Shown here piece by piece: positions 1-63,843 of a stretch of 64,000 nucleotides of DNA (positions are counted from its first letter, which is position 1; each line of letters opens with the position of its first letter). The DNA is taken from assembly GCA_041649675.1 (NCBI GenBank), contig JBAZMQ010000002.1, positions 1,920 to 65,919 of the forward strand. Direction: 5' to 3'. Source of the DNA: Patescibacteria group bacterium (GTDB lineage: Bacteria > Patescibacteriota > Patescibacteriia > Buchananbacterales > UBA6539). Under the pieces are notes generated by a model that ran no database searches, was not told where the DNA came from, and worked only from the letters and a program-made list of their open reading frames with translations. The translations under genes were made by a program, and so were the position numbers.

Positions 1-207
1 AAAATTTTCCATGCCGCCACCGGATAAAATATTCATTATTCCTAAAAGCTGGTTGGAAGCAAAGAAATCTTTAAGGGCGGTAGCGTCAATGCCTGGAATT
101 GGAATGTGGGCAGCAATCCGAGAGATTACCAACATTGCCAAAACAAATAAAATACTGTTTCGTAAATCTTTAATTTTCCAAATTTGAATTATTTTTTTAA
201 ACCACAT
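1..207 (-). CDS. secY: Preprotein translocase SecY, N-terminal fragment (runs off window start)
   Basis: The minus-strand translation from the ATG at 205-207 reads MWFKKIIQIWKIKDLRNSILFVLAMLVISRIAAHIPIPGID, a typical SecY N-terminus. It lies downstream of rplO, as in spc operons. Confidence 0.7.
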   Translation of the reverse strand, partial: MWFKKIIQIWKIKDLRNSILFVLAMLVISRIAAHIPIPGIDATALKDFFASNQLLGIMNILSGGGMENF

Positions 208-232
208 GTAATTTTGTCGCTTTAACAAAATT

Positions 233-736
233 TTATTTAGCTATATTTTTAATTTTCTGTTTGCCTGGTTTTGGTCTTTTCCTTCTAACAATCAGTTGGA
301 CTTTACCGCCGGCTTTAGTTATTGCCGCTTTGGCGGAATCGGAAAATGAGTTGGCCACCACCGTAAATTTTTTGGTTAAATTACCTTCACCCAAAACTTT
401 TAGTCCAGACTTGCTTGGTTTAATTAACTTTTTACTAATCAATTTTTTGGCATAAATCAATTCACCATTTTCAAATATCTCATCAAGCTGTTTGATGTTA
501 ATAATCGCCATTTTTGGTCTTAAACTTCTAAAACCACCAAGCTTTGGTTTATTTCTTAATAGATTAACCAACCCTCGGCGTTTTAAACCACTCTTACCGC
601 CAGAACGAGATCTTTGACCCTTCATACCCCGACCGCTGTAAGTACCCCGGCCAGAAGCATTACCGCGACCGACCCGTCTGGTTTTCTTTTTGGCTTTTTT
701 ATTAATGCGTAAATTGTTTAAAGTTAATTCGGCCAT
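233..736 (-). CDS. rplO: 50S ribosomal protein L15
   Basis: Contains the GRGNASGRGTYSGRGMKGQ motif. Position is after S5 in the spc operon. Confidence 0.92.
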   Translation of the reverse strand: MAELTLNNLRINKKAKKKTRRVGRGNASGRGTYSGRGMKGQRSRSGGKSGLKRRGLVNLLRNKPKLGGFRSLRPKMAIINIKQLDEIFENGELIYAKKLISKKLIKPSKSGLKVLGEGNLTKKFTVVANSFSDSAKAAITKAGGKVQLIVRRKRPKPGKQKIKNIAK

Positions 737-2929: not shown

Positions 2930-3469
2930 TTATTTGCTAAAAGGAAAGCCTAAATACTTTAATAATTCTAAGCCCTCTTCCCTGGTCTTAGCGGTTGTTA
3001 CGACCGAAATTTGCAAACCATGAACTTTTTCAATTTCATCGGATTTAATTTCCGGAAAAGAAATATGTTCTCTAAAACCAAGATTCAAATTACCTTTTTG
3101 ATCAACATTCTTTGCGTCTAGCCCTCTAAAGTCTCTAACCCGAGGCAAGGTAACGTTAACCAATTTATCTAAAAAATCATACATTCTTTTGCCCCGCAAA
3201 GTCACCATCATCCCAACAATTAGCCCTTCTCTGATTTTAAAATTAGAAATAGACTTTTTGGCTGCAGTTTTGACTGGCCGCTGACCGGTAATCCTTAACA
3301 AGGTATTTTCCGCTACTTCGTTAAACTTGGCATCCCTTAGCCCTTGGCCAGTACCAATATTAATAACAACCTTCTCAACCCGCGGTACCGCTAAATTATT
3401 TTTATAACTAAACTTTTCCTTAAGGGCAGGAATAATTTTTTTCTGATATTGTTCTTGCAAACGACTCAT
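2930..3469 (-). CDS. rplE: 50S ribosomal protein L5
   Basis: L5-like sequence; operon order. Confidence 0.92.
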   Translation of the reverse strand: MSRLQEQYQKKIIPALKEKFSYKNNLAVPRVEKVVINIGTGQGLRDAKFNEVAENTLLRITGQRPVKTAAKKSISNFKIREGLIVGMMVTLRGKRMYDFLDKLVNVTLPRVRDFRGLDAKNVDQKGNLNLGFREHISFPEIKSDEIEKVHGLQISVVTTAKTREEGLELLKYLGFPFSK

Positions 3470-3480
3470 AATTTTATAAA

Positions 3481-3789
3481 CTAAATTATTTCCTTACATT
3501 TATTACAAATTCTTGATTTCTTTTTATTCTCCAAAAATTTATAGCCAACTTTACCAATACTACCACATTTAGGACAAATTAATGCAACATTACTGACAGC
3601 CATAGCTGCTGGAAATTGAATCCGCTGGCCTTTTTCTCCTTGCTTTTTCGGCCGCATATTTTTATACATTAAATTTATCCCTTCAACTGAAAGTTTATTT
3701 TTTTCAACAAAAATCTGCAACACTTTTCCAGTTTTACCTTTATCTTTGCCAGCTAATATTTTTACTTTATCACCTTTTTTGATCTTCAT
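3481..3789 (-). CDS. rplX: 50S ribosomal protein L24 with C-terminal CxxC...CxxC zinc-ribbon-like tail
   Basis: KOW N-terminus KGDKVKILAGKDKGKTGKV. The C-terminus CPKCGSIGKVGYKFLENKKKSRICNKCKE replaces the usual L24 tail. Confidence 0.88.
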   Translation of the reverse strand: MKIKKGDKVKILAGKDKGKTGKVLQIFVEKNKLSVEGINLMYKNMRPKKQGEKGQRIQFPAAMAVSNVALICPKCGSIGKVGYKFLENKKKSRICNKCKEII

Positions 3790-5781: not shown

Positions 5782-6387
5782 CTAACCTGTTTTACGCTGA
5801 AATACGCCCTTCAAAAAGCCCTTACTCTCTTTGCCGGAACCGGCCTTTGGACCCTTGGAAGAATTTTTATTAATATCTTTCTTTATTTCATCGGGATTGA
5901 CTACTTTAATATCTTCGGACTTATTATCTTTCTTGACTACCGCTTTCTTTTTAGCCCCGACCCGAACACCTAAAATTAAATCTAGATGGCAAGTCCGCTT
6001 ATGAATTGGCGCTGACCGACCATGAGCCCTGGGCATAAAACGTTTTAATACCGGACCGGCATTGGCCGTAATGGTTTTAATATACAAATCTTGCTTGTCT
6101 AATTGAAAATTATTTTCAGCGTTAGCAATGGCGGAATTCAAAAGCTTAATTACCGGCTTAGAAGCCGCCTTATTAACAAAACGCAAACTGTCTAAAGCTT
6201 TTAAAACTTCAAAACCGCGCAACTGATTAATCACCAGTCTTACCTTTTTGGCTGACATATGCAAATACCGGGCCGAGGCTTTAACTTCGGTCACTTCTTT
6301 TTTCTTGCTTTTGGCCGGTTTTTCTTTTTTACTGTCAACTTTAGCAACTTCGGCTTTGGCTTCTGATTTTTTAATATCTTTTTCCAT
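5782..6387 (-). CDS. rplV: 50S ribosomal protein L22 (201 aa, Lys-rich N- and C-terminal extensions)
   Basis: Core ASARYLHMSAKKVRLVINQLRG. It is roughly twice the usual L22 length. Confidence 0.9.
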   Translation of the reverse strand: MEKDIKKSEAKAEVAKVDSKKEKPAKSKKKEVTEVKASARYLHMSAKKVRLVINQLRGFEVLKALDSLRFVNKAASKPVIKLLNSAIANAENNFQLDKQDLYIKTITANAGPVLKRFMPRAHGRSAPIHKRTCHLDLILGVRVGAKKKAVVKKDNKSEDIKVVNPDEIKKDINKNSSKGPKAGSGKESKGFLKGVFQRKTG

Positions 6388-14194: not shown

Positions 14195-14282
14195 GATTTT
14201 AACAATTAACTATTAACAATTAACTATTAAAATTTAACAACTTCCCTGGATAAGTTAATTGTTAAATGTTAACGGTTAACTG

Positions 14283-50289: not shown

Positions 50290-50313
50290 AATTTTAGGTT
50301 TTTTTGTTTTTAT

Positions 50314-50389
50314 CCCCTCACCCCCAGCCCCTCTCCCCGCTTGAAGCGGGGAGAGGGTGTCCCGATGTTAAATCGGGACGGGTGAGGGG
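50314..50389. repeat. G+C-rich nested-palindrome element (outer CCCCTCACCC/GGGTGAGGGG enclosing two hairpins)
   Basis: Inner hairpins CCCTCTCCCCGC-TTGAAG-GCGGGGAGAGGG and TCCCGATGTTAAATCGGGA. A second copy with the same architecture is at 54336-54432. Confidence 0.75.
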
Positions 50390-50405
50390 TCCAAAAAATT
50401 AAATA

Positions 50406-52845: not shown

Positions 52846-54171
52846 CTATAAATCTAAGTACCTTTTCAATTCCCTTGGCGTGACTTCAGTTTTCTGTTCA
52901 TCAATTTCTATGTTTTTAGCATCAATGAATCTATCTAAAGTATGTTTAGTAATTGAATTGATGATTATTTCATCTTTATTTAATTCATCAATCGCTTCTT
53001 GAAGCGAGCCTGGCAGGCTAGATATTTTTAACTCTTGCTTTCTGGTGCTGTCTAAATGATAGATATCTTCTTCAACTGCCTTAGACAACGGGATGTTATT
53101 TTCAATTCCGTCTAAACCGGCCTCTAAAATGGCGGCAAAAGCCAAATAAGGATTACACGACGGATCAGGCGATCGAAGTTCAACTCTGGTGGATTGCTCA
53201 CGGCCGGGCGTAAACCGCGGGATTCGGATAAGGGCCGAACGATTCATTTGGGCCCAGCAAATATTAACCGGGGCTTCATAACCCGGAATCAATCTTTTGA
53301 ACGAATTGGTAGTTGGGTTGGTTAAGGCCGTAAAACTTCGGCTATGTTTGAGTAATCCAGCAATAAACTGATAGGCAATCTTTGACAACTTGTAACCATT
53401 ATTATCTTCGTAAAACAAATTATTACCTTTTTGGTCAAATAAGCTTAAGTGAACATGCATACCTGATCCATTAATGCCGGCAAATGGTTTTGGCATAAAG
53501 GTCGCATTAACACCATAGCTTTGCGCAATCGCCTTGATAGTAGTTTTCAAAGTAATAATATTGTCAGCAGTATTTAAGGCATCAGCATAACGAAAATCTA
53601 TTTCATGCTGACCAACGGCTACCTCATGATGTCCAGCTTCAATTTTTATGTTTAACTCAGATGAAGCCTTTATTACATCTTCCCTAATTTTTGAAGCAAC
53701 ATCAAAAGGCGAGAAATCAAAATAGCCACCGTAATCATGAGGTACCGGAGCTAAATTACTGTCTTTCTGCAAAAGAAAAAATTCTAGTTCAGCGCCAACA
53801 TTTAAAACATACCCTTTTTCTTCTGCCTTTTTCATGGCTTGGCGTAAAATGTAACGCGGGTCGCCGCTAAAGGGTTTTAAATCCGGCCCATAGACATCAC
53901 AGATAATTCTCGCCGCCTTATTATCTTTTGTACTCCAAGGTAAAGTGCAATAAGTTTTTGCATCCGGCATTAGCAGCTGATCACTCTCGGCGATTCTAGC
54001 AAATCCTTCAATTGACGAACCATCAAACCAGATCCCTTTTTCCAAAGCCCCGGGCAACTGCTCGGTCGGAATAACGACATCTTTGGGTACGCCCAAAATA
54101 TCGGTAAACTGCAAATGAATGTACTTAACATTGTCTTTTTCTACTTTTTCTAAAAGTGTTTCTTTGCTCAT
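52846..54171 (-). CDS. glnA: Glutamine synthetase type I; start at MSKETLLEKV (54171); ORF track over-extends to 54276 through the promoter
   Basis: GS beta-grasp and catalytic domains; FDGSSIEGF and other GS-I motifs. Confidence 0.9.
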   Translation of the reverse strand: MSKETLLEKVEKDNVKYIHLQFTDILGVPKDVVIPTEQLPGALEKGIWFDGSSIEGFARIAESDQLLMPDAKTYCTLPWSTKDNKAARIICDVYGPDLKPFSGDPRYILRQAMKKAEEKGYVLNVGAELEFFLLQKDSNLAPVPHDYGGYFDFSPFDVASKIREDVIKASSELNIKIEAGHHEVAVGQHEIDFRYADALNTADNIITLKTTIKAIAQSYGVNATFMPKPFAGINGSGMHVHLSLFDQKGNNLFYEDNNGYKLSKIAYQFIAGLLKHSRSFTALTNPTTNSFKRLIPGYEAPVNICWAQMNRSALIRIPRFTPGREQSTRVELRSPDPSCNPYLAFAAILEAGLDGIENNIPLSKAVEEDIYHLDSTRKQELKISSLPGSLQEAIDELNKDEIIINSITKHTLDRFIDAKNIEIDEQKTEVTPRELKRYLDL

Positions 54172-54216
54172 AGTTAATTGTTTCCGCCATAGGCGGAAAT
54201 TGTTAATTGTTAAACT

Positions 54217-54274
54217 AAAAAAAGGCGTCAAATTAGAGGACGTCTTCGTCAAACTTCTGACACGCCGTTGTGTC
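54217..54274 (-). promoter_or_regulatory. glnA 5' leader: hexaloop hairpin GACAC-AACGGC-GUGUC overlapping a candidate terminator GGCGU...ACGCC + U7
   Basis: The loop has A1/G4 as in ANTAR-bound hairpins. The hairpin's 3' arm doubles as the 5' arm of the terminator. A GAF-ANTAR gene is immediately upstream. Confidence 0.45.
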
Positions 54275-54280
54275 ATCTAT

Positions 54281-54307
54281 ATATTAGCATAACTGGAAAA
54301 TTTTGCA
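54281..54307 (-). promoter_or_regulatory. glnA promoter TTGCAA-N16-(TGc)TAATAT
   Basis: Extended -10 TGnTAATAT and -35 TTGCAA on the minus strand. Confidence 0.5.
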
Positions 54308-54335
54308 AGGTTGAGATGTGGATATCTTAACCAAA

Positions 54336-54432
54336 ACCCCTCACCCACTCAGTAAAACTTAAGTCCCTCTCCCCGCTTGAGGCGGGGAGAGGGTGGTCGC
54401 CTCGAGCTTGTCGAGAGGCGACCGGGTGAGGG
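54336..54432. repeat. Second copy of the G+C-rich nested-palindrome element. On the minus strand it ends GGGTGAGGGGTTTTGGTT and so also acts as the terminator after the ANTAR gene
   Basis: Outer IR CCCCTCACCC/GGGTGAGGGG. Inner hairpins CCCTCTCCCCGC-TTGAGG-GCGGGGAGAGGG and GGTCGCCTC...GAGGCGACC. Confidence 0.75.
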
Positions 54433-54435
54433 GCC

Positions 54436-55140
54436 CTACTTGATCACTTCTTGGGCTAAAATAATCGCCTCAGCCACTTCTTTTAGCGACCGACGCTTAT
54501 CCATACTTTTTTTAACTAAAAGCCGATGAGCCTCCTCTTCAGTCAAACCGCCGTTTTTCATCAAAATCGCCTTGGCCTTGTTAATCAATTTTTGGGTCTC
54601 CAAAGCTTCTTTTAAAACATTAGTTTCGGAAATCAATCTTGAGACTTCCAAAATTCCGCCGATTTGTTTAGCAATGGTTTCTAAAAAGCTGATTTCTTTT
54701 TTCTGATATTTTTTGGATTTTTTGTGCTGAACGTTAATGACGCCAATCACGCTGTTTTTAAAAATAATGGGTACGGATAAAAAACCTTCAAATTTATCTT
54801 CGGGTAAACTGGAAAACAATTTGAACCGCTTATCTTCATAAGCTTTGCTAAAAATTGCTACTGATTTTTTGGTTTCCGCTACCCAGCCGGTAATACCTTC
54901 ACCAACTTTCATTTTAATCTTAGCTAAATTGGAATGATGCGGATTTTGTGAGGCTTTTAAAATTACTTCATCGCCAGAAATTAAATAAATAAAACAAGAA
55001 TCAGCTTTGGTGATTTTACCAATAATTTTTGCAATATTATTCAAAATTTCTTTCAAATCAAAACCGTTGCCGATGGTATCAATAATCTCCTGCAAAATCG
55101 CTAAATTGTTTTTTACGTCTGAATTTTGATCCTTAGACAT
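54436..55140 (-). CDS. GAF-ANTAR RNA-binding antitermination regulator
   Basis: N-terminal GAF-like domain. C-terminus EALETQKLINKAKAILMKNGGLTEEEAHRLLVKKSMDKRRSLKEVAEAII is an ANTAR motif. Confidence 0.75.
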   Translation of the reverse strand: MSKDQNSDVKNNLAILQEIIDTIGNGFDLKEILNNIAKIIGKITKADSCFIYLISGDEVILKASQNPHHSNLAKIKMKVGEGITGWVAETKKSVAIFSKAYEDKRFKLFSSLPEDKFEGFLSVPIIFKNSVIGVINVQHKKSKKYQKKEISFLETIAKQIGGILEVSRLISETNVLKEALETQKLINKAKAILMKNGGLTEEEAHRLLVKKSMDKRRSLKEVAEAIILAQEVIK

Positions 55141-55143
55141 ATC

Positions 55144-55662
55144 CTATTTTACTTTATTATATTGTTCAATCGCTTCATCGATAATTTTTATATCCTTAAT
55201 TATTTTACTGGCTGGCTGCTGCTGATACCCCTTAATCCAGACGACGGCTTGACTGATATCATTAACAATGCAATCTGAGGTTGAATAAATAAACGGATTA
55301 ACCCAATCTTTTATCAATTCACCCTCAAAAATAACATTTGATTTCCTATGGTGCGAATTTTTGGGTAAAACCACGACCACCGGCCTGGAAAAATACTTGG
55401 CAATTAATATTTCCTGTGCGGTTCCTACTCCTAATTTCTCTTCAGCATAAACTACCACCAAATCGGAATTCTTGATTATATCTGAATCATGGCCAAAAGT
55501 TATAAATGGCCTTGTCTCGTCCAGCCATTGATCGCCGTAAAAAAATTCGGCATTCTTAATCTTAGCCAATTCAGTTTTATACTTGACTTTCCAATCCTGC
55601 CAATTTTTTCTAGCCTTATCACCTTTTGGGATAGGGCCAATTAGACAAATCTTGAAAGACAT
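55144..55662 (-). CDS. Nucleoside 2-deoxyribosyltransferase-like protein (putative)
   Basis: ICLIGPI N-terminus and GVGTAQEILIA (resembles the DSGTAFEIGYA catalytic region); weak. Confidence 0.35.
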   Translation of the reverse strand: MSFKICLIGPIPKGDKARKNWQDWKVKYKTELAKIKNAEFFYGDQWLDETRPFITFGHDSDIIKNSDLVVVYAEEKLGVGTAQEILIAKYFSRPVVVVLPKNSHHRKSNVIFEGELIKDWVNPFIYSTSDCIVNDISQAVVWIKGYQQQPASKIIKDIKIIDEAIEQYNKVK

Positions 55663-55720
55663 ATTTAATTACTGTTTACTATCAACCATAAACTACAAAC
55701 TATTTACTATAAGCTAACAG

Positions 55721-56638: not shown

Positions 56639-56715
56639 ATTTTAGCTTCTTAGCTTATTAGCTTCTTAGCTTATTAGGGAACTAAAAAGCTAAAAAGCTA
56701 CCACCTAAAAAGCGG

Positions 56716-61542: not shown

Positions 61543-63366
61543 TTATTGCGCTTGGGCCCAAAAAATTAATTCACCAGTCTTAATCCCCGAACCAATGTAA
61601 TTACTAGGAATGGTTAAGCTGACAGTCTCGGCTTGATTAGTCAGGCTGGCCAAATCCAAGCTATAGCTTGACCAAATTTTACTACCAACCTGCAAACCAG
61701 AAAGAAATACTGAATCACCGCTGACCGATGAGGTAATCTTTAGATTAACCGTTCCGGCATTATTTAAAGTTACAGTCTGGCTAGCTGATTTGCCTGGCTG
61801 TAATTTACCGAAGCTAAGCTGACTGGGAGTAACTTCAAATATAATTGAATCACCGGCAATTTGGCCACGGCCGCCCTGATCAACTTCCACCTGCAGACCG
61901 ATATTTTGTGAAACTCCGCTGCCAACTGCCACGACCTGCTGGTTACTGCGAATATAATTAGATTTTTGCGCATACAAAGTATAATAGCCATCCGGTAAAG
62001 TTAAGGTAATCTGGCCTTGGGCATCAGTCTGATACTCCTGGTCTGCACCAAAAACTGTTGCTTGAGCCAATGGCTGCCAGCCTTGGTTATAATACTCAAC
62101 TGTTGCCGTTACGGTCTGGCCGGATTCCGGTTGATTATCATTAACAGTAATTCTTGTTGCTCGGTCAAAATCAGGATAAGCTGGTGAGCTGGTATCCGGG
62201 TCATAATAAATCAAAATTTCATCACCAATTTTTAGCTGGTACTGTTCCAGGCCATCATTGGTTGTTTGGTTGTTAATCAAATACATCCAATAAGCCGGAT
62301 TATTATTGCCAATCCCGGCGATTGAATCAAGAAAAAATGTCCCCCAGTCGCGATTACCAGTGAAAGTATAGTTACAAACACTTTGACCAGACACTAATAA
62401 ATCATAAGCCGTAGCCCCACTGGAAAAATATTTATCACAAATCGCACCCTGGGGGCCTTCAATCCTCAATAAATAATCACCGGTTTCAGTTTGCTGATTT
62501 TCTTGACCACTGCCCGAAAAATGGCTTAAAGGCAAAGTCTTTTCTGACAAAGCAATAACTGCGTCTTGCGTGGCCATTAAATTAGCAGTCTTGTTTGCCG
62601 CGGTTCGGCCAAACGAACCATCATTATTTTTTAATGACTGAATATAAGCAATCGGATTGTTTCCACCTTTCTGCCATAAAGCTGGGCTTTGACCGACTTT
62701 TCTAATGGCCCAAACCACCCAGCTGGTAGAATCAACATCGGATTCATTACCCGCAGCCCAACCCCAGCCGCCATCACCATTTTGAGCTAAGGCCAAATAA
62801 GCCAAAGCTTTGCTAATCGCGGCATTATCAGAACTGACTCCAGCTTCAATTAACGAAATAGTAATTATAGCTGTACTATTAGTATCGCTGATAACACCAA
62901 CATTATAACCCCAGCCACCATCAGTATTTTGTTTGGTTAATAAATAACTCTTGGTTTGAGAAATCTCTTGACTGCTAGCGGCTAAACCCGCGGCTGATAA
63001 TCCTAGAATGCCGAAGCTGTCATCCATTAACATTTGAGCATCACCAATTTGACCATCGGCGTAAAAATTCTTAAGTTGGCTGACGTAATCAACATTACCA
63101 AAAGTGTAAGGATTTTGGTTCAAAGCGGTTACGGCCAAAATGGTTTTAGCGTAATCCAGTGGCGTATTATTGCTGGATTTCAAATGGTTGCTAGCAATAT
63201 CACTAGCCGAAGCGGCAGCCAAAGCCATAGTTACCCAAGGCGTTTGGCCAGAGGCCTTTAAATAAGTGACTGAATCTGAACTGACGTCGGCAGCCACTAG
63301 CACTGGCTGAATTAAAATCGCCAGACTGCAAGCCACCAACAAAAAAGTTTTGATTTTGCTTTTCAT
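61543..63366 (-). CDS. Secreted protein: prenyltransferase/squalene-oxidase-type alpha-toroid repeats + DUF4430-like domain + CarboxypepD_reg-like domain (transcobalamin/intrinsic-factor-like architecture); ATG at 63366 (track uses TTG 63372)
   Basis: QxxDGGWG repeats (KQNTDGGWGY, AQNGDGGWGW, LKNNDGSFGR). Later GATAYDLL...GTFFLDSIAGI...YWMYLIN...YQLKIGDEILIYY is DUF4430-like. Confidence 0.55.
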   Translation of the reverse strand: MKSKIKTFLLVACSLAILIQPVLVAADVSSDSVTYLKASGQTPWVTMALAAASASDIASNHLKSSNNTPLDYAKTILAVTALNQNPYTFGNVDYVSQLKNFYADGQIGDAQMLMDDSFGILGLSAAGLAASSQEISQTKSYLLTKQNTDGGWGYNVGVISDTNSTAIITISLIEAGVSSDNAAISKALAYLALAQNGDGGWGWAAGNESDVDSTSWVVWAIRKVGQSPALWQKGGNNPIAYIQSLKNNDGSFGRTAANKTANLMATQDAVIALSEKTLPLSHFSGSGQENQQTETGDYLLRIEGPQGAICDKYFSSGATAYDLLVSGQSVCNYTFTGNRDWGTFFLDSIAGIGNNNPAYWMYLINNQTTNDGLEQYQLKIGDEILIYYDPDTSSPAYPDFDRATRITVNDNQPESGQTVTATVEYYNQGWQPLAQATVFGADQEYQTDAQGQITLTLPDGYYTLYAQKSNYIRSNQQVVAVGSGVSQNIGLQVEVDQGGRGQIAGDSIIFEVTPSQLSFGKLQPGKSASQTVTLNNAGTVNLKITSSVSGDSVFLSGLQVGSKIWSSYSLDLASLTNQAETVSLTIPSNYIGSGIKTGELIFWAQAQ

Positions 63367-63600
63367 AAACAAAAATCTCCCTTTTCGAGGGAGCGGTTAG
63401 ATCATCCATTTTAAAAACGGACGGCCACCGACTCTTAATCTCGAAGAGTTTAGTGAATTAATTAAGCTTTGATTTTAGCGACCTGACTTAGTTGAGTGCA
63501 GCATCACCCCTCGATAACTCGGGGTAATTTTTCGTTGCACTCAAAATCACAGTTGCGGACCAGTGGAGGGTTTACACCTCACTTCGTAAAACTAAAGCTT
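63367..63600 (-). promoter_or_regulatory. Cobalamin riboswitch (candidate) with terminator/RBS-sequestering hairpin CUCCCU-CGAAA-AGGGAG + U5 just before the start codon
   Basis: Core GAAGUGAGGUGUAAACCCUCCACUGGUCCGCAACUGUGA (revcomp of 63547-63585) follows the B12-element consensus ...GGUGnAAAnCC...GCnGnCCCGCnACUGUnA. Confidence 0.55.
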
Positions 63601-63675
63601 TTTGTCAACGCTATCGTATAGGCTAATTAGAATATTAGAACTTTTTAATTACCCATATCGCAATAGCACTTCATC

Positions 63676-63716: not shown

Positions 63717-63843
63717 TAAGGTAATACCATTTTAAACCTCTAAATTTTTACTGTCAAACTTTTCTGTGGATAAAAACAGAAAATGGAAATCAGTGATCAG
63801 AAATCAGGCGCATAGCCAATGACTGATGACTGTTCTCTAGTTT

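Follow-up and report, generated by a model that had tools for sequence, protein, structure and literature searches.

A predicted GAF-ANTAR antitermination switch at the glutamine synthetase gene of a Patescibacteria bacterium

The stretch of DNA analysed here (the window) is 64 kb long and comes from a small-genome groundwater bacterium of the Patescibacteria. On its minus strand, a gene encoding a GAF-ANTAR one-component regulator is followed by glnA, the gene of a type I glutamine synthetase (Table 1). The glnA product matches Pfam Gln-synt_C (3e-129) and Gln-synt_N (3.5e-28) and scores 527.8 bits with the TIGR00653 equivalog model, for which the cut-off is 429.15; its N-terminus aligns with homologues starting at residue 1. 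A promoter specific to glnA, TTGCAA-N16-TGcTAATAT, had been pointed out in an earlier reading made from the sequence only. It is indeed present and keeps its place in most related loci, where the first leader hairpin follows a sigma-70-like promoter at a distance of 5-16 nt. The window's promoter reached 8 of 12 in a promoter scan, under the threshold, and was read from the sequence, while the homologous promoter of one related locus (L001) was called by the scan and has the TG. The element TATCCACA was considered as a glnA-specific operator and rejected. The window holds 3 copies against 1.6 expected, which is no enrichment, and the element also precedes the -35 of an unrelated promoter; it is treated here as a general promoter-upstream element.

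Table 1. Features of the GAF-ANTAR and glnA locus (positions in the window; domain rows in residues of the regulator)
Feature	Position	Strand	Details
glnA, type I glutamine synthetase	52846..54171	minus	441 aa from ATG at 54171
Pre-ATG hairpin UUUCCGCC-UAU-GGCGGAAA	54181..54199	minus	8 bp, triloop, -11.3 kcal/mol
U7 tract	54223-54217	minus	ends terminator region
Terminator region	54217..54247	minus	GAAGaCGUC 54247-54239 (L2 and P2 3' arm) pairs with GACGcCUUU 54229-54221
P2 hairpin	54239..54250	minus	GAC / loop GAAGAC (G1, G4) / GUC; covariance model alignment
P1 hairpin	54259..54274	minus	GACAC / loop AACGGC (A1, G4) / GUGUC; covariance model matches
glnA promoter	54281..54308	minus	-35 TTGCAA 54308-54303, 16-nt spacer, TG 54289-54288, -10 TAATAT 54286-54281
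GC-rich nested-hairpin repeat, then UUUUGG	54331..54435 (about)	minus	directly after regulator stop codon
GAF-ANTAR one-component regulator gene	54436..55140	minus	234 aa; Pfam ANTAR and GAF_2
GAF domain	residues ~3-146		AlphaFold model
Long helix, 51 residues	residues 147-197		AlphaFold model
ANTAR helices	residues 201-214 and 219-233		AlphaFold model

Two conspicuous structures near the genes turned out to be insertions. The hairpin before the glnA start codon had been read earlier as a possible block to ribosome loading. The hairpin exists, but it has a UAU triloop and sits 9 nt rather than 11 nt from the ATG. It is a 22-nt insertion that is missing in L001, L002 and L004, and no other copy was found in the window; we therefore rejected it as a conserved translational or regulatory element. 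The nested GC-rich structure after the regulator stop codon folds at -74.3 kcal/mol (z = -7.5) and is probably the regulator gene's terminator, the role it had been given before. It is, however, a dispersed, lineage-specific repeat outside the switch: a second copy lies at 50391-50313 and the homologous site is empty in L001, L002 and L004, and we rejected a gene-specific terminator or riboregulator on these grounds. A 172-aa ORF just upstream of the regulator gene (55144-55662) was likewise discarded as a partner of the regulator. It has no Pfam or NCBIfam match, and among the related loci it recurs only in L003, there apart from the regulator gene.

Both domain assignments of the regulator exceed the Pfam gathering score. 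The ANTAR match (PF03861) has an E-value of 7.1e-21 and 74.2 bits against a cut-off of 27.3, spanning profile positions 3-54 of 54, and the GAF_2 match has an E-value of 2.1e-18 and 67.3 bits against 28.6. In the AlphaFold model (mean pLDDT 83.8), the GAF domain is followed by the 51-residue helix and a helical ANTAR bundle. No gaps are needed to align the ANTAR region with EutV (6wsh) and Rv1626 (1s8n). Based on the EutV-RNA structure, K143, K147, Y164, R168, M172, N173, R175 and R177 of EutV contact the RNA (PMC8934654). In the ungapped alignment, four of these are identical in the regulator (K143, K147, M172 and R175, equivalent to K184, K188, M213 and R216), two are conservative changes (Y164 to H205 and N173 to D214) and two differ (R168 to V209 and R177 to S218).

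The glnA leader holds two short hairpins, P1 and P2, separated by an 8-nt linker, each with a hexanucleotide loop (L1, AACGGC; L2, GAAGAC). The -10 element stops 6 nt short of P1. The sequence-only reading had recognised the A1/G4 hexaloop of P1 and had taken it as the only canonical one; the second hairpin, GAC-GAAGAC-GUC, was overlooked. With two hexaloop hairpins at the site, the one-hairpin weakness stated in that reading vanishes. Across the 21 loci used for motif statistics (the window and 20 related loci), the tandem layout is kept, and L1 carries A1 and G4 and L2 carries G4 without exception. The first position of L2 is A in 18 of the 21; the three with G are the window, L003 and L016, and the metagenomic relatives L105, L131 and L142 have G as well. 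The A1 that characterises loop 2 of ANTAR targets (Ramesh et al. 2012) is thus replaced by G in the window. In the EutV-RNA structure, G4 is the sole base-specific contact (PMC8934654), while mutations of A1 lowered EutV-dependent induction (PMC3369931). P2 has an alternative fold, a 4-bp tetraloop hairpin (GACG-AAGA-CGUC); computed together with P1, the energy is -10.0 kcal/mol with the tetraloop versus -8.2 kcal/mol with the 3-bp hexaloop. By its predicted structure, the leader is a canonical ANTAR dual-hexaloop antiterminator/terminator of the kind modelled in PMC3369931.

The helices that can form before the U7 tract are mutually exclusive with the P1 plus P2 form. One is built from L2 and the 3' arm of P2 (Table 1). 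The other competes with P1: GGCGU (54266-54262) is complementary to ACGCC (54228-54224), which runs into T7 (54223-54217), and the full helix pairs 54266-54256, comprising the P1 loop, its 3' arm and the linker, with 54232-54223, ending at the same U7. The second helix is the one in which the loop and 3' arm of P1 had been read as the 5' arm of the terminator. That helix exists, but the family-wide terminator overlaps L2 and the P2 3' arm. For most of the 21 loci, the leader is predicted to take, at minimum energy, a fold of P1 and a hairpin that extends from L2 or the P2 3' arm to the U run. The equilibrium fold of the window departs from this norm and favours the P1-competing helix, with a P1 pair probability of 0.06; only in the window and L002 is that helix slightly favoured thermodynamically.

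From the domain architecture, the synteny, the dual hairpins with their covariation and the overlapping U-tract terminator, all computed here, we infer a scheme of protein-RNA binding, termination and ligand control. The glnA transcript would start from its own promoter a few nucleotides before P1. When the regulator is not active, a leader helix ending at U7 would form and transcription would stop before glnA. In that helix, GACGCCUUU could pair with L2 and the P2 3' arm; in the window sequence, the partners could instead be UUUGACGCC and the P1 3' arm with the linker. The active and presumably dimeric GAF-ANTAR protein would bind both hexaloops, with G4 in both and A1 in L1, and would keep P1 and P2 closed; both terminator helices would then be blocked and RNA polymerase would read into glnA. 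The GAF domain most likely ties RNA binding to nitrogen status, such that low glutamine and/or high 2-oxoglutarate would turn glnA on.

The least secure part of this scheme is the signal. The same RNA mechanism could operate with a GAF domain that senses something other than nitrogen, such as a cyclic nucleotide, redox state or another metabolite, and the link to nitrogen would then come from the targets only. GAF domains bind many ligands. Besides its top matches, the fold search with the GAF domain also yields cAMP- and cGMP-binding GAFs, free methionine sulfoxide reductases and phytochromes at E-values around 1e-8. The regulator GAF is only about 24% identical to those of PtsP, and our literature search found no experimentally characterised GAF-ANTAR protein. 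Against this stand the best matches themselves. PtsP, also known as EI-Ntr, ranks at the top by fold (3ci6 and 3trc, TM 0.87-0.88) and in NCBIfam (PRK11061, N-terminal region, 1e-23), where NifA comes second at 1e-11. The same two structures are the closest named sequence matches in the PDB; only a Geobacter GAF domain without a name (3e0y) ranks above them. Glutamine is a ligand of the EI-Ntr GAF, which relays nitrogen status (PMC4848567). Judged by sequence and modelled fold, the regulator GAF is most similar to the glutamine-binding EI-Ntr/PtsP GAF and the NifA GAF, and this resemblance provides a concrete, testable ligand hypothesis. The targets, glnA and amtB, are the genes expected to answer glutamine and 2-oxoglutarate levels. 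We consider a non-nitrogen signal rather unlikely. A more far-reaching version of the nitrogen-responsive scheme can be offered tentatively, as a possibility. It holds that the GAF-ANTAR protein is a direct sensor of glutamine and/or 2-oxoglutarate built on an EI-Ntr-type GAF and is a main nitrogen regulator of Patescibacteria, acting on glnA and amtB through RNA antitermination alone, without a DNA-binding nitrogen regulator. If true, a ligand and a regulon would for the first time be assigned to a GAF-ANTAR protein.

The leader might also be a genuine ANTAR site at which no termination takes place, so that binding near the 5' end alters mRNA stability or translation and U7 is a weak or non-functional remnant. 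The P2-overlapping terminator of the window reaches only -5.3 kcal/mol by RNAfold energy evaluation, has a 9-nt loop and an A-C mismatch, and was not called by a simple terminator scan. P1 lies at the very 5' end of the transcript. A preprint on mycobacteria (bioRxiv 10.1101/660928) describes ANTAR sites that act on translation. However, most of the 21 loci combine a U run with the P2-overlapping helix, mostly at -10 to -22 kcal/mol, and the homologous terminator of L001, which overlaps the P2 3' arm, was called by the scan. In the window, the P1-competing helix adds stability to the same U7 end. The motif also keeps a distance of 45-100 nt from the start codon and never overlaps it. These observations make a site that does not terminate improbable.

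The pairing of this regulator with this leader is suggested by the gene order in other genomes. In 16 Patescibacteria-type loci, with regulator identities of 41-95%, the GAF-ANTAR gene has glnA directly downstream. The motif was found in 20 related loci, 18 times before glnA, once before amtB and once before the regulator gene, and was kept down to 41% regulator identity. When the gene order changes, the RNA motif stays with the target gene. The order in L007 is motif-glnA-ANTAR. L010 keeps the motif directly before glnA, with 2.3 kb separating motif and regulator. In L011 the motif is upstream of the ammonium transporter gene amtB (Pfam 2e-127). Across 504 kb of these loci, all model matches with E < 0.03 were on the strand of the regulator. 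It could be argued that a different ANTAR protein, for example one of the response-regulator type, binds the leader and that the GAF-ANTAR protein regulates other transcripts. The genome is covered here by the 64-kb window, beyond which other ANTAR proteins or targets may lie. In addition, ANTAR domains recognise a generic hexaloop signature, and the same sequence signature precedes Glu_synthase-family genes in other metagenomic contigs. (The DNA-pattern scan of metagenomes gave many false positives within GC-rich coding regions, and we kept only those matches that showed both P1 pairing and a U run.) This explanation is set against the fact that the motif adjoins the GAF-ANTAR gene in the 20 related loci, in three gene orders. 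Furthermore, covariance models run with filters off found no other site above 9.3 bits in the window. We regard it as very unlikely. With no further site above that score, the regulon cannot be defined from the window.

The specificity of the motif was assessed with covariance models. Rfam 15 gave no relevant family on 53900-55400 at E <= 10, only spurious eukaryotic and sRNA matches; at the gathering score, the whole window yielded a tRNA and an AdoCbl riboswitch and nothing else. Since no ANTAR-target family was among the matches, we built our own models. Model R2, built only from distant loci with the window and its close relatives excluded, gave a single match in a search of both strands of the 64-kb window (54274-54238, 23.6 bits, E 0.003), the next best being 7.5 bits. 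Over the 21 loci, 100% of P1 cells are paired and four of the five pairs change on both sides. The P1 covariation score of 0.44 compares with 0.11 in shuffled alignments (0 of 500 reached 0.44) and at most 0.11 for slid partners. The GAC/GUC stem of P2 is invariant in these loci and hence has no covariation. Both stems are short, at 5 bp and 3 bp, and the z-score of the whole-leader fold is modest (-2.9), but the notion that the hairpins are chance structures of an AT-rich leader with no regulatory role is effectively refuted by the P1 covariation and the R2 search, in addition to the conservation at 41% regulator identity. The leader motif goes beyond chance.

The proposal of antitermination control of glnA by the neighbouring GAF-ANTAR protein, already made in the sequence-only reading, is supported by the synteny, by the motif following its target, by the P1 covariation and by the family-wide terminator. 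We therefore favour, with considerable confidence, a one-component ANTAR switch that controls nitrogen assimilation by antitermination and whose GAF is coupled to nitrogen status. It would extend the ANTAR dual-hexaloop mechanism to Patescibacteria, where regulation is almost unstudied, and would give the GAF-ANTAR architecture a defined predicted RNA target, namely glnA, plus amtB in a related lineage. A protein of this size and an RNA of about 60 nt are small enough to lend themselves to in vitro work and to use as a compact metabolite-responsive RNA switch.

The prototype of ANTAR dual-hexaloop antiterminators is found in the eut leaders of Enterococcus faecalis, which are controlled by EutV/EutW (Ramesh et al. 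2012, PMC3369931; Walshe et al. 2022, PMC8934654). The glnA leader shares with them the tandem short stem-loops, the hexanucleotide loops with G4, the A1 in L1 and an intrinsic terminator whose 5' arm overlaps P2. The regulator shares with EutV a long coiled-coil helix before the ANTAR domain and the equivalents of the essential Met172 and Arg175, whereas EutV R168 and R177 are not conserved. The sensors differ, as the window has a GAF domain in a one-component protein and EutV has a receiver domain phosphorylated by a kinase. On the RNA side, the window differs from eut in its target, in the G at L2 position 1 and in the invariant 3-bp P2 stem. A second relative is the NIT-ANTAR protein NasR acting on the nasF leader of Klebsiella oxytoca (PMC7496416, PMC3369931). 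It is also a one-component ANTAR protein in which a small-molecule sensor controls RNA binding, and a hexaloop and a terminator likewise lie upstream of nitrogen-assimilation genes. In contrast to the GAF protein of the window, NasR senses nitrate and nitrite through its NIT domain, and the target operons are different. The sensor half has its closest named-function solved counterpart, in sequence and fold, in the GAF of EI-Ntr (PtsP) from the nitrogen phosphotransferase system. As its output, however, the regulator has an RNA-binding ANTAR domain where EI-Ntr has a PEP-dependent phosphotransferase; the identity is low, as noted above, and glutamine binding is a prediction. A further parallel comes from the Firmicutes. 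ANTAR motifs at genes for glutamine synthetase and for ammonium transporters appear in Table S2 of PMC3369931, among them the predicted site at Amet_3386 (glnA) of Alkaliphilus metalliredigens, with the ANTAR gene Amet_3385. As in the window, a dual-hexaloop and terminator stand immediately before glnA and the ANTAR gene is adjacent. The gene order of A. metalliredigens is that of L007; in the window, which belongs to another phylum, the regulator gene precedes glnA. The mechanism and its link to nitrogen genes, glutamine synthetase included, were already predicted in 2012 (PMC3369931), and because ANTAR motifs before glutamine synthetase genes were catalogued then, the switch in the window would be a new example of a known mechanism.

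Every gene in this part of the window lies on the minus strand, and the GAF-ANTAR regulator is followed directly by glnA. Both domain matches of the regulator exceed the Pfam gathering thresholds, and the glnA product reaches 527.8 bits against TIGR00653 (cut-off 429); a longer 476-aa glnA frame from the ORF finder is an artefact, the homologue alignments beginning at the Met at 54171. The regulator is 100% identical to a protein of a Patescibacteria MAG, with its nearest relatives in Candidatus Buchananbacteria. For a 172-aa ORF 5' of the regulator, no family was matched; its only recurrence is in L003, one of the loci with regulator homologues, where it lies away from the regulator gene. Genes of this genome often miss a Shine-Dalgarno sequence.

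The regulator and glnA are separated by a 264-nt spacer, and all the leader features described in the sequence-only reading were found in it. That reading had recognized a single hexaloop hairpin, however, and overlooked a second, P2, which follows the first, P1; their loops are termed L1 and L2.

Features of the regulator-glnA region and of the wider window (spacer elements in 5' to 3' order)
Feature	Coordinates	Strand	Details
GAF-ANTAR regulator ORF	54436-55140	-	234 aa; GAF_2 2e-18, C-terminal ANTAR 7e-21
GC-rich nested structure	~54435-54331	-	-74.3 kcal/mol, z = -7.5
TATCCACA box	54324-54317	-	upstream of promoter
Promoter	TTGCAA 54308-54303; TAATAT 54286-54281	-	16-nt spacer including TG
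P1	54274-54259	-	GACAC-AACGGC-GUGUC
Linker, P1 to P2		-	8 nt
P2	54250-54239	-	GAC-GAAGAC-GUC
Segment 3' of P2	GACGCC 54229-54224; U7 54223-54217	-	CUCUAAUUU, GACGCC, U7
Pre-ATG hairpin	54199-54181	-	UUUCCGCC-UAU-GGCGGAAA; 9 nt, then ATG
glnA, type I glutamine synthetase	ATG 54171 to 52846	-	Gln-synt_C 3e-129
Insertion 1	54331-54435	-	GC-rich nested-hairpin element
GC-rich element, second copy	50313-50391	-
Insertion 2	54181-54202	-	22 nt; 8-bp triloop hairpin, -11.3 kcal/mol
AdoCbl (cobalamin) riboswitch	63422-63613	-	Rfam RF01482, 56.2 bits, above gathering score
609-aa ORF	61543-63372		downstream of the riboswitch

Regulator homologues were found at 80 loci in a scan that took a single genome for each species. 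A same-strand glnA lies directly 3' of the regulator in 16 of them (regulator identity 41-95%), nearly all Patescibacteria-type, and the dual-hairpin element is common to all 16 spacers; in the loci from Acidobacteriota and Nitrospira, no glnA flanks the regulator. R1, a covariance model trained on 15 of the 16 leaders, matched the window with filters off only at 54274-54238 (40.1 bits; runner-up 9.3 bits). R2, built from distant loci only (regulator identity <= 61%) to avoid circularity, likewise matched only the leader (23.6 bits, E 0.003; second best 7.5 bits). On 504 kb of loci, all R1 matches with E < 0.03 fell on the regulator's strand, five of them outside the training set. The gene order is motif-glnA-regulator in L007, while the motif stands ahead of glnA in L008, immediately 5' of a glnA 2.3 kb away from the regulator in L010, and ahead of an ammonium transporter (Pfam 2e-127) in L011. 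In L014, with no glnA within 3 kb, the motif (2634-2669) and a U-tract terminator stand before a small ORF and the regulator's own gene, a placement that suggests autoregulation. When metagenomes were scanned by pattern, this signature also turned up ahead of additional glnA genes, an amtB (L131) and, on other metagenomic contigs, Glu_synthase-family genes.

The glnA leaders of the Paceibacterota loci L008 (3830-3920) and L009 (3839-3922) carry three successive hexaloop hairpins, not two, before the terminator, with loops including AAUGGC, AAAGCA and AUUGAU. In L017 (Patescibacteria), the motif and glnA come after two tandem GAF-ANTAR paralogues (2297-2944 and 3001-3651), which share 43% and 49% identity with the window protein. 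A double-GAF ANTAR gene in a Nitrospiraceae MAG (L067) has a possible dual-hexaloop site 2.5 kb 3' of it (6191-6244; 20.4 bits, E about 0.01-0.03; AUGGAC-AACGAC-GUCCAU ... GGAC-AAUGGC-GUCC).

Structural conservation was counted over 21 sequences. The P1 cells are 100% paired, with both-sided changes in 4 of the 5 pairs; the covariation score was 0.44, as compared with 0.11 for shuffled alignments (observed value reached by 0/500 shuffles) and at most 0.11 when the partners were slid. P2 yields no covariation evidence because its GAC/GUC core is invariant. L1 has A1 and G4 in 21/21, and L2 has G4 in 21/21 and A1 in 18/21, the exceptions, all with G, being the window, L003 and L016; the metagenomic relatives L105, L131 and L142 also carry this G1 variant. 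Since the flipped-out G4 is the sole base-specific contact in the EutV-RNA crystal structure (PMC8934654), G at position 1 of L2 is plausibly tolerated, although in E. faecalis A1 mutations lowered induction (PMC3369931).

When the segment spanning P1 through the U run is folded, the minimum-energy structure in the majority of the 21 loci combines P1 with a second hairpin, which opens within L2 or the 3' arm of P2 and closes at the U run; the energy of this hairpin is mostly -10 to -22 kcal/mol. In L001 a pattern scan calls the terminator hairpin and a homologous promoter. The window counterpart (GAAGaCGUC/GACGcCUUU) is weak at -5.3 kcal/mol, and a simple terminator scan made no call for it. 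Here P1 with P2 gives -8.2 kcal/mol and P1 with the P2-overlapping terminator -12.0 kcal/mol. The idea that P1 itself doubles as a terminator arm is thermodynamically reasonable in this sequence: the proposed GGCGU/ACGCC register gives -11.6 kcal/mol, and the minimum-energy fold (-12.8 kcal/mol) pairs 54266-54256 (P1 loop, 3' arm and linker) with 54232-54223 around a nested GACG tetraloop. It is not the conserved architecture: L002 also prefers the P1-competing fold, and L001, L003, L004 and L005 do not. P1 forms first when the growing transcript is folded. The antitermination logic stands with either helix, because closed P1 and P2 exclude both.

Alignment of the spacer to L001, L002 and L004 revealed two insertions particular to the window lineage. 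Close relatives lack the GC-rich element at the corresponding site, and none of the 80 related loci has it. Its two copies in this 37% GC genome, both directly 3' of minus-strand stop codons, have one outer stem in common (CCCCTCACCC/GGGTGAGGGG); of their two inner hairpins, CCCTCTCCCCGC-YTCAA-GCGGGGAGAGGG is conserved and the other is variable in sequence. As a dispersed repeat missing from relatives' spacers, it is ruled out as a switch part. So is the lineage-specific pre-ATG hairpin, whose 22-nt insertion is bordered by ACAAT direct repeats and has no further copy in the window.

(T)TATCCACA, a motif resembling the DnaA box, is located 0-9 nt 5' of the glnA -35 hexamer in the window and in L001, L002, L004, L005, L006 and L018. 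It also stands ahead of an unrelated promoter (TTTATCCACAGAAAAGTTTGACA; 63765-63772, minus strand), with no enrichment across the window as a whole, and may be an element that these bacteria place upstream of promoters in general. Repeats of short AT-rich words, TTAACAATTAAC and AGCTTCTTAGCTTATT, make up leaders such as 54172-54216, 55663-55720, 56639-56715 and 14199-14279 (TTAACAATTAAC-like words: 9 in the window vs 1.7 expected).

In the AlphaFold model of the regulator (mean pLDDT 83.8), the GAF domain is followed by a helix of 51 residues (147-197) and two more helices, the predicted structure being the ANTAR layout with a coiled-coil. By three measures, the GAF domain is nearest to those of PtsP/EI-Ntr: NCBIfam PRK11061 (1e-23), the closest named matches of a PDB sequence search (3ci6, 4e-16; 3trc, 4e-14) and the fold search, in which the same two entries were best (TM 0.87-0.88). 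The top PDB sequence match is an unnamed Geobacter GAF domain (3e0y, 6.5e-24), and the next NCBIfam match is the GAF domain of NifA (1e-11), which binds 2-oxoglutarate. In EI-Ntr, the GAF domain is glutamine-binding (PMC4848567). In an ungapped alignment read against the EutV RNA contacts (PMC8934654), K143/K184, K147/K188, M172/M213 and R175/R216 (EutV/window protein) are identical, Y164/H205 and N173/D214 conservative, and R168/V209 and R177/S218 different.

In the proposed mechanism, transcription would by default stop at a terminator in the leader of glnA, and the active GAF-ANTAR protein would override this terminator by holding P1 and P2 closed. The RNA side is supported by computation over about 20 loci, and the predicted protein-RNA pairing by adjacency conserved across three different gene orders; the ligand of the GAF domain is putative, by homology only. 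The observation made in the sequence-only reading is confirmed, and its interpretation is supported, with corrections on P2, the terminator register and the two lineage-specific insertions.

The dual-hexaloop motif with A1, G4 and a P2-overlapping terminator was defined by Ramesh et al. 2012, whose Table S2 contains glutamine synthetase 25 times, for example Amet_3386 (glnA) adjoining the ANTAR gene Amet_3385; PAS- and GAF-ANTAR proteins were then without any characterised member (PMC3369931). A 2020 paper gives PAL and NasR as the only characterised one-component ANTAR proteins, and a 2025 review names GAF-ANTAR only as a domain architecture. New here are the phylum and the pairing of a GAF sensor with a defined target, along with two minor variants, G1 in L2 and the P1-competing terminator.
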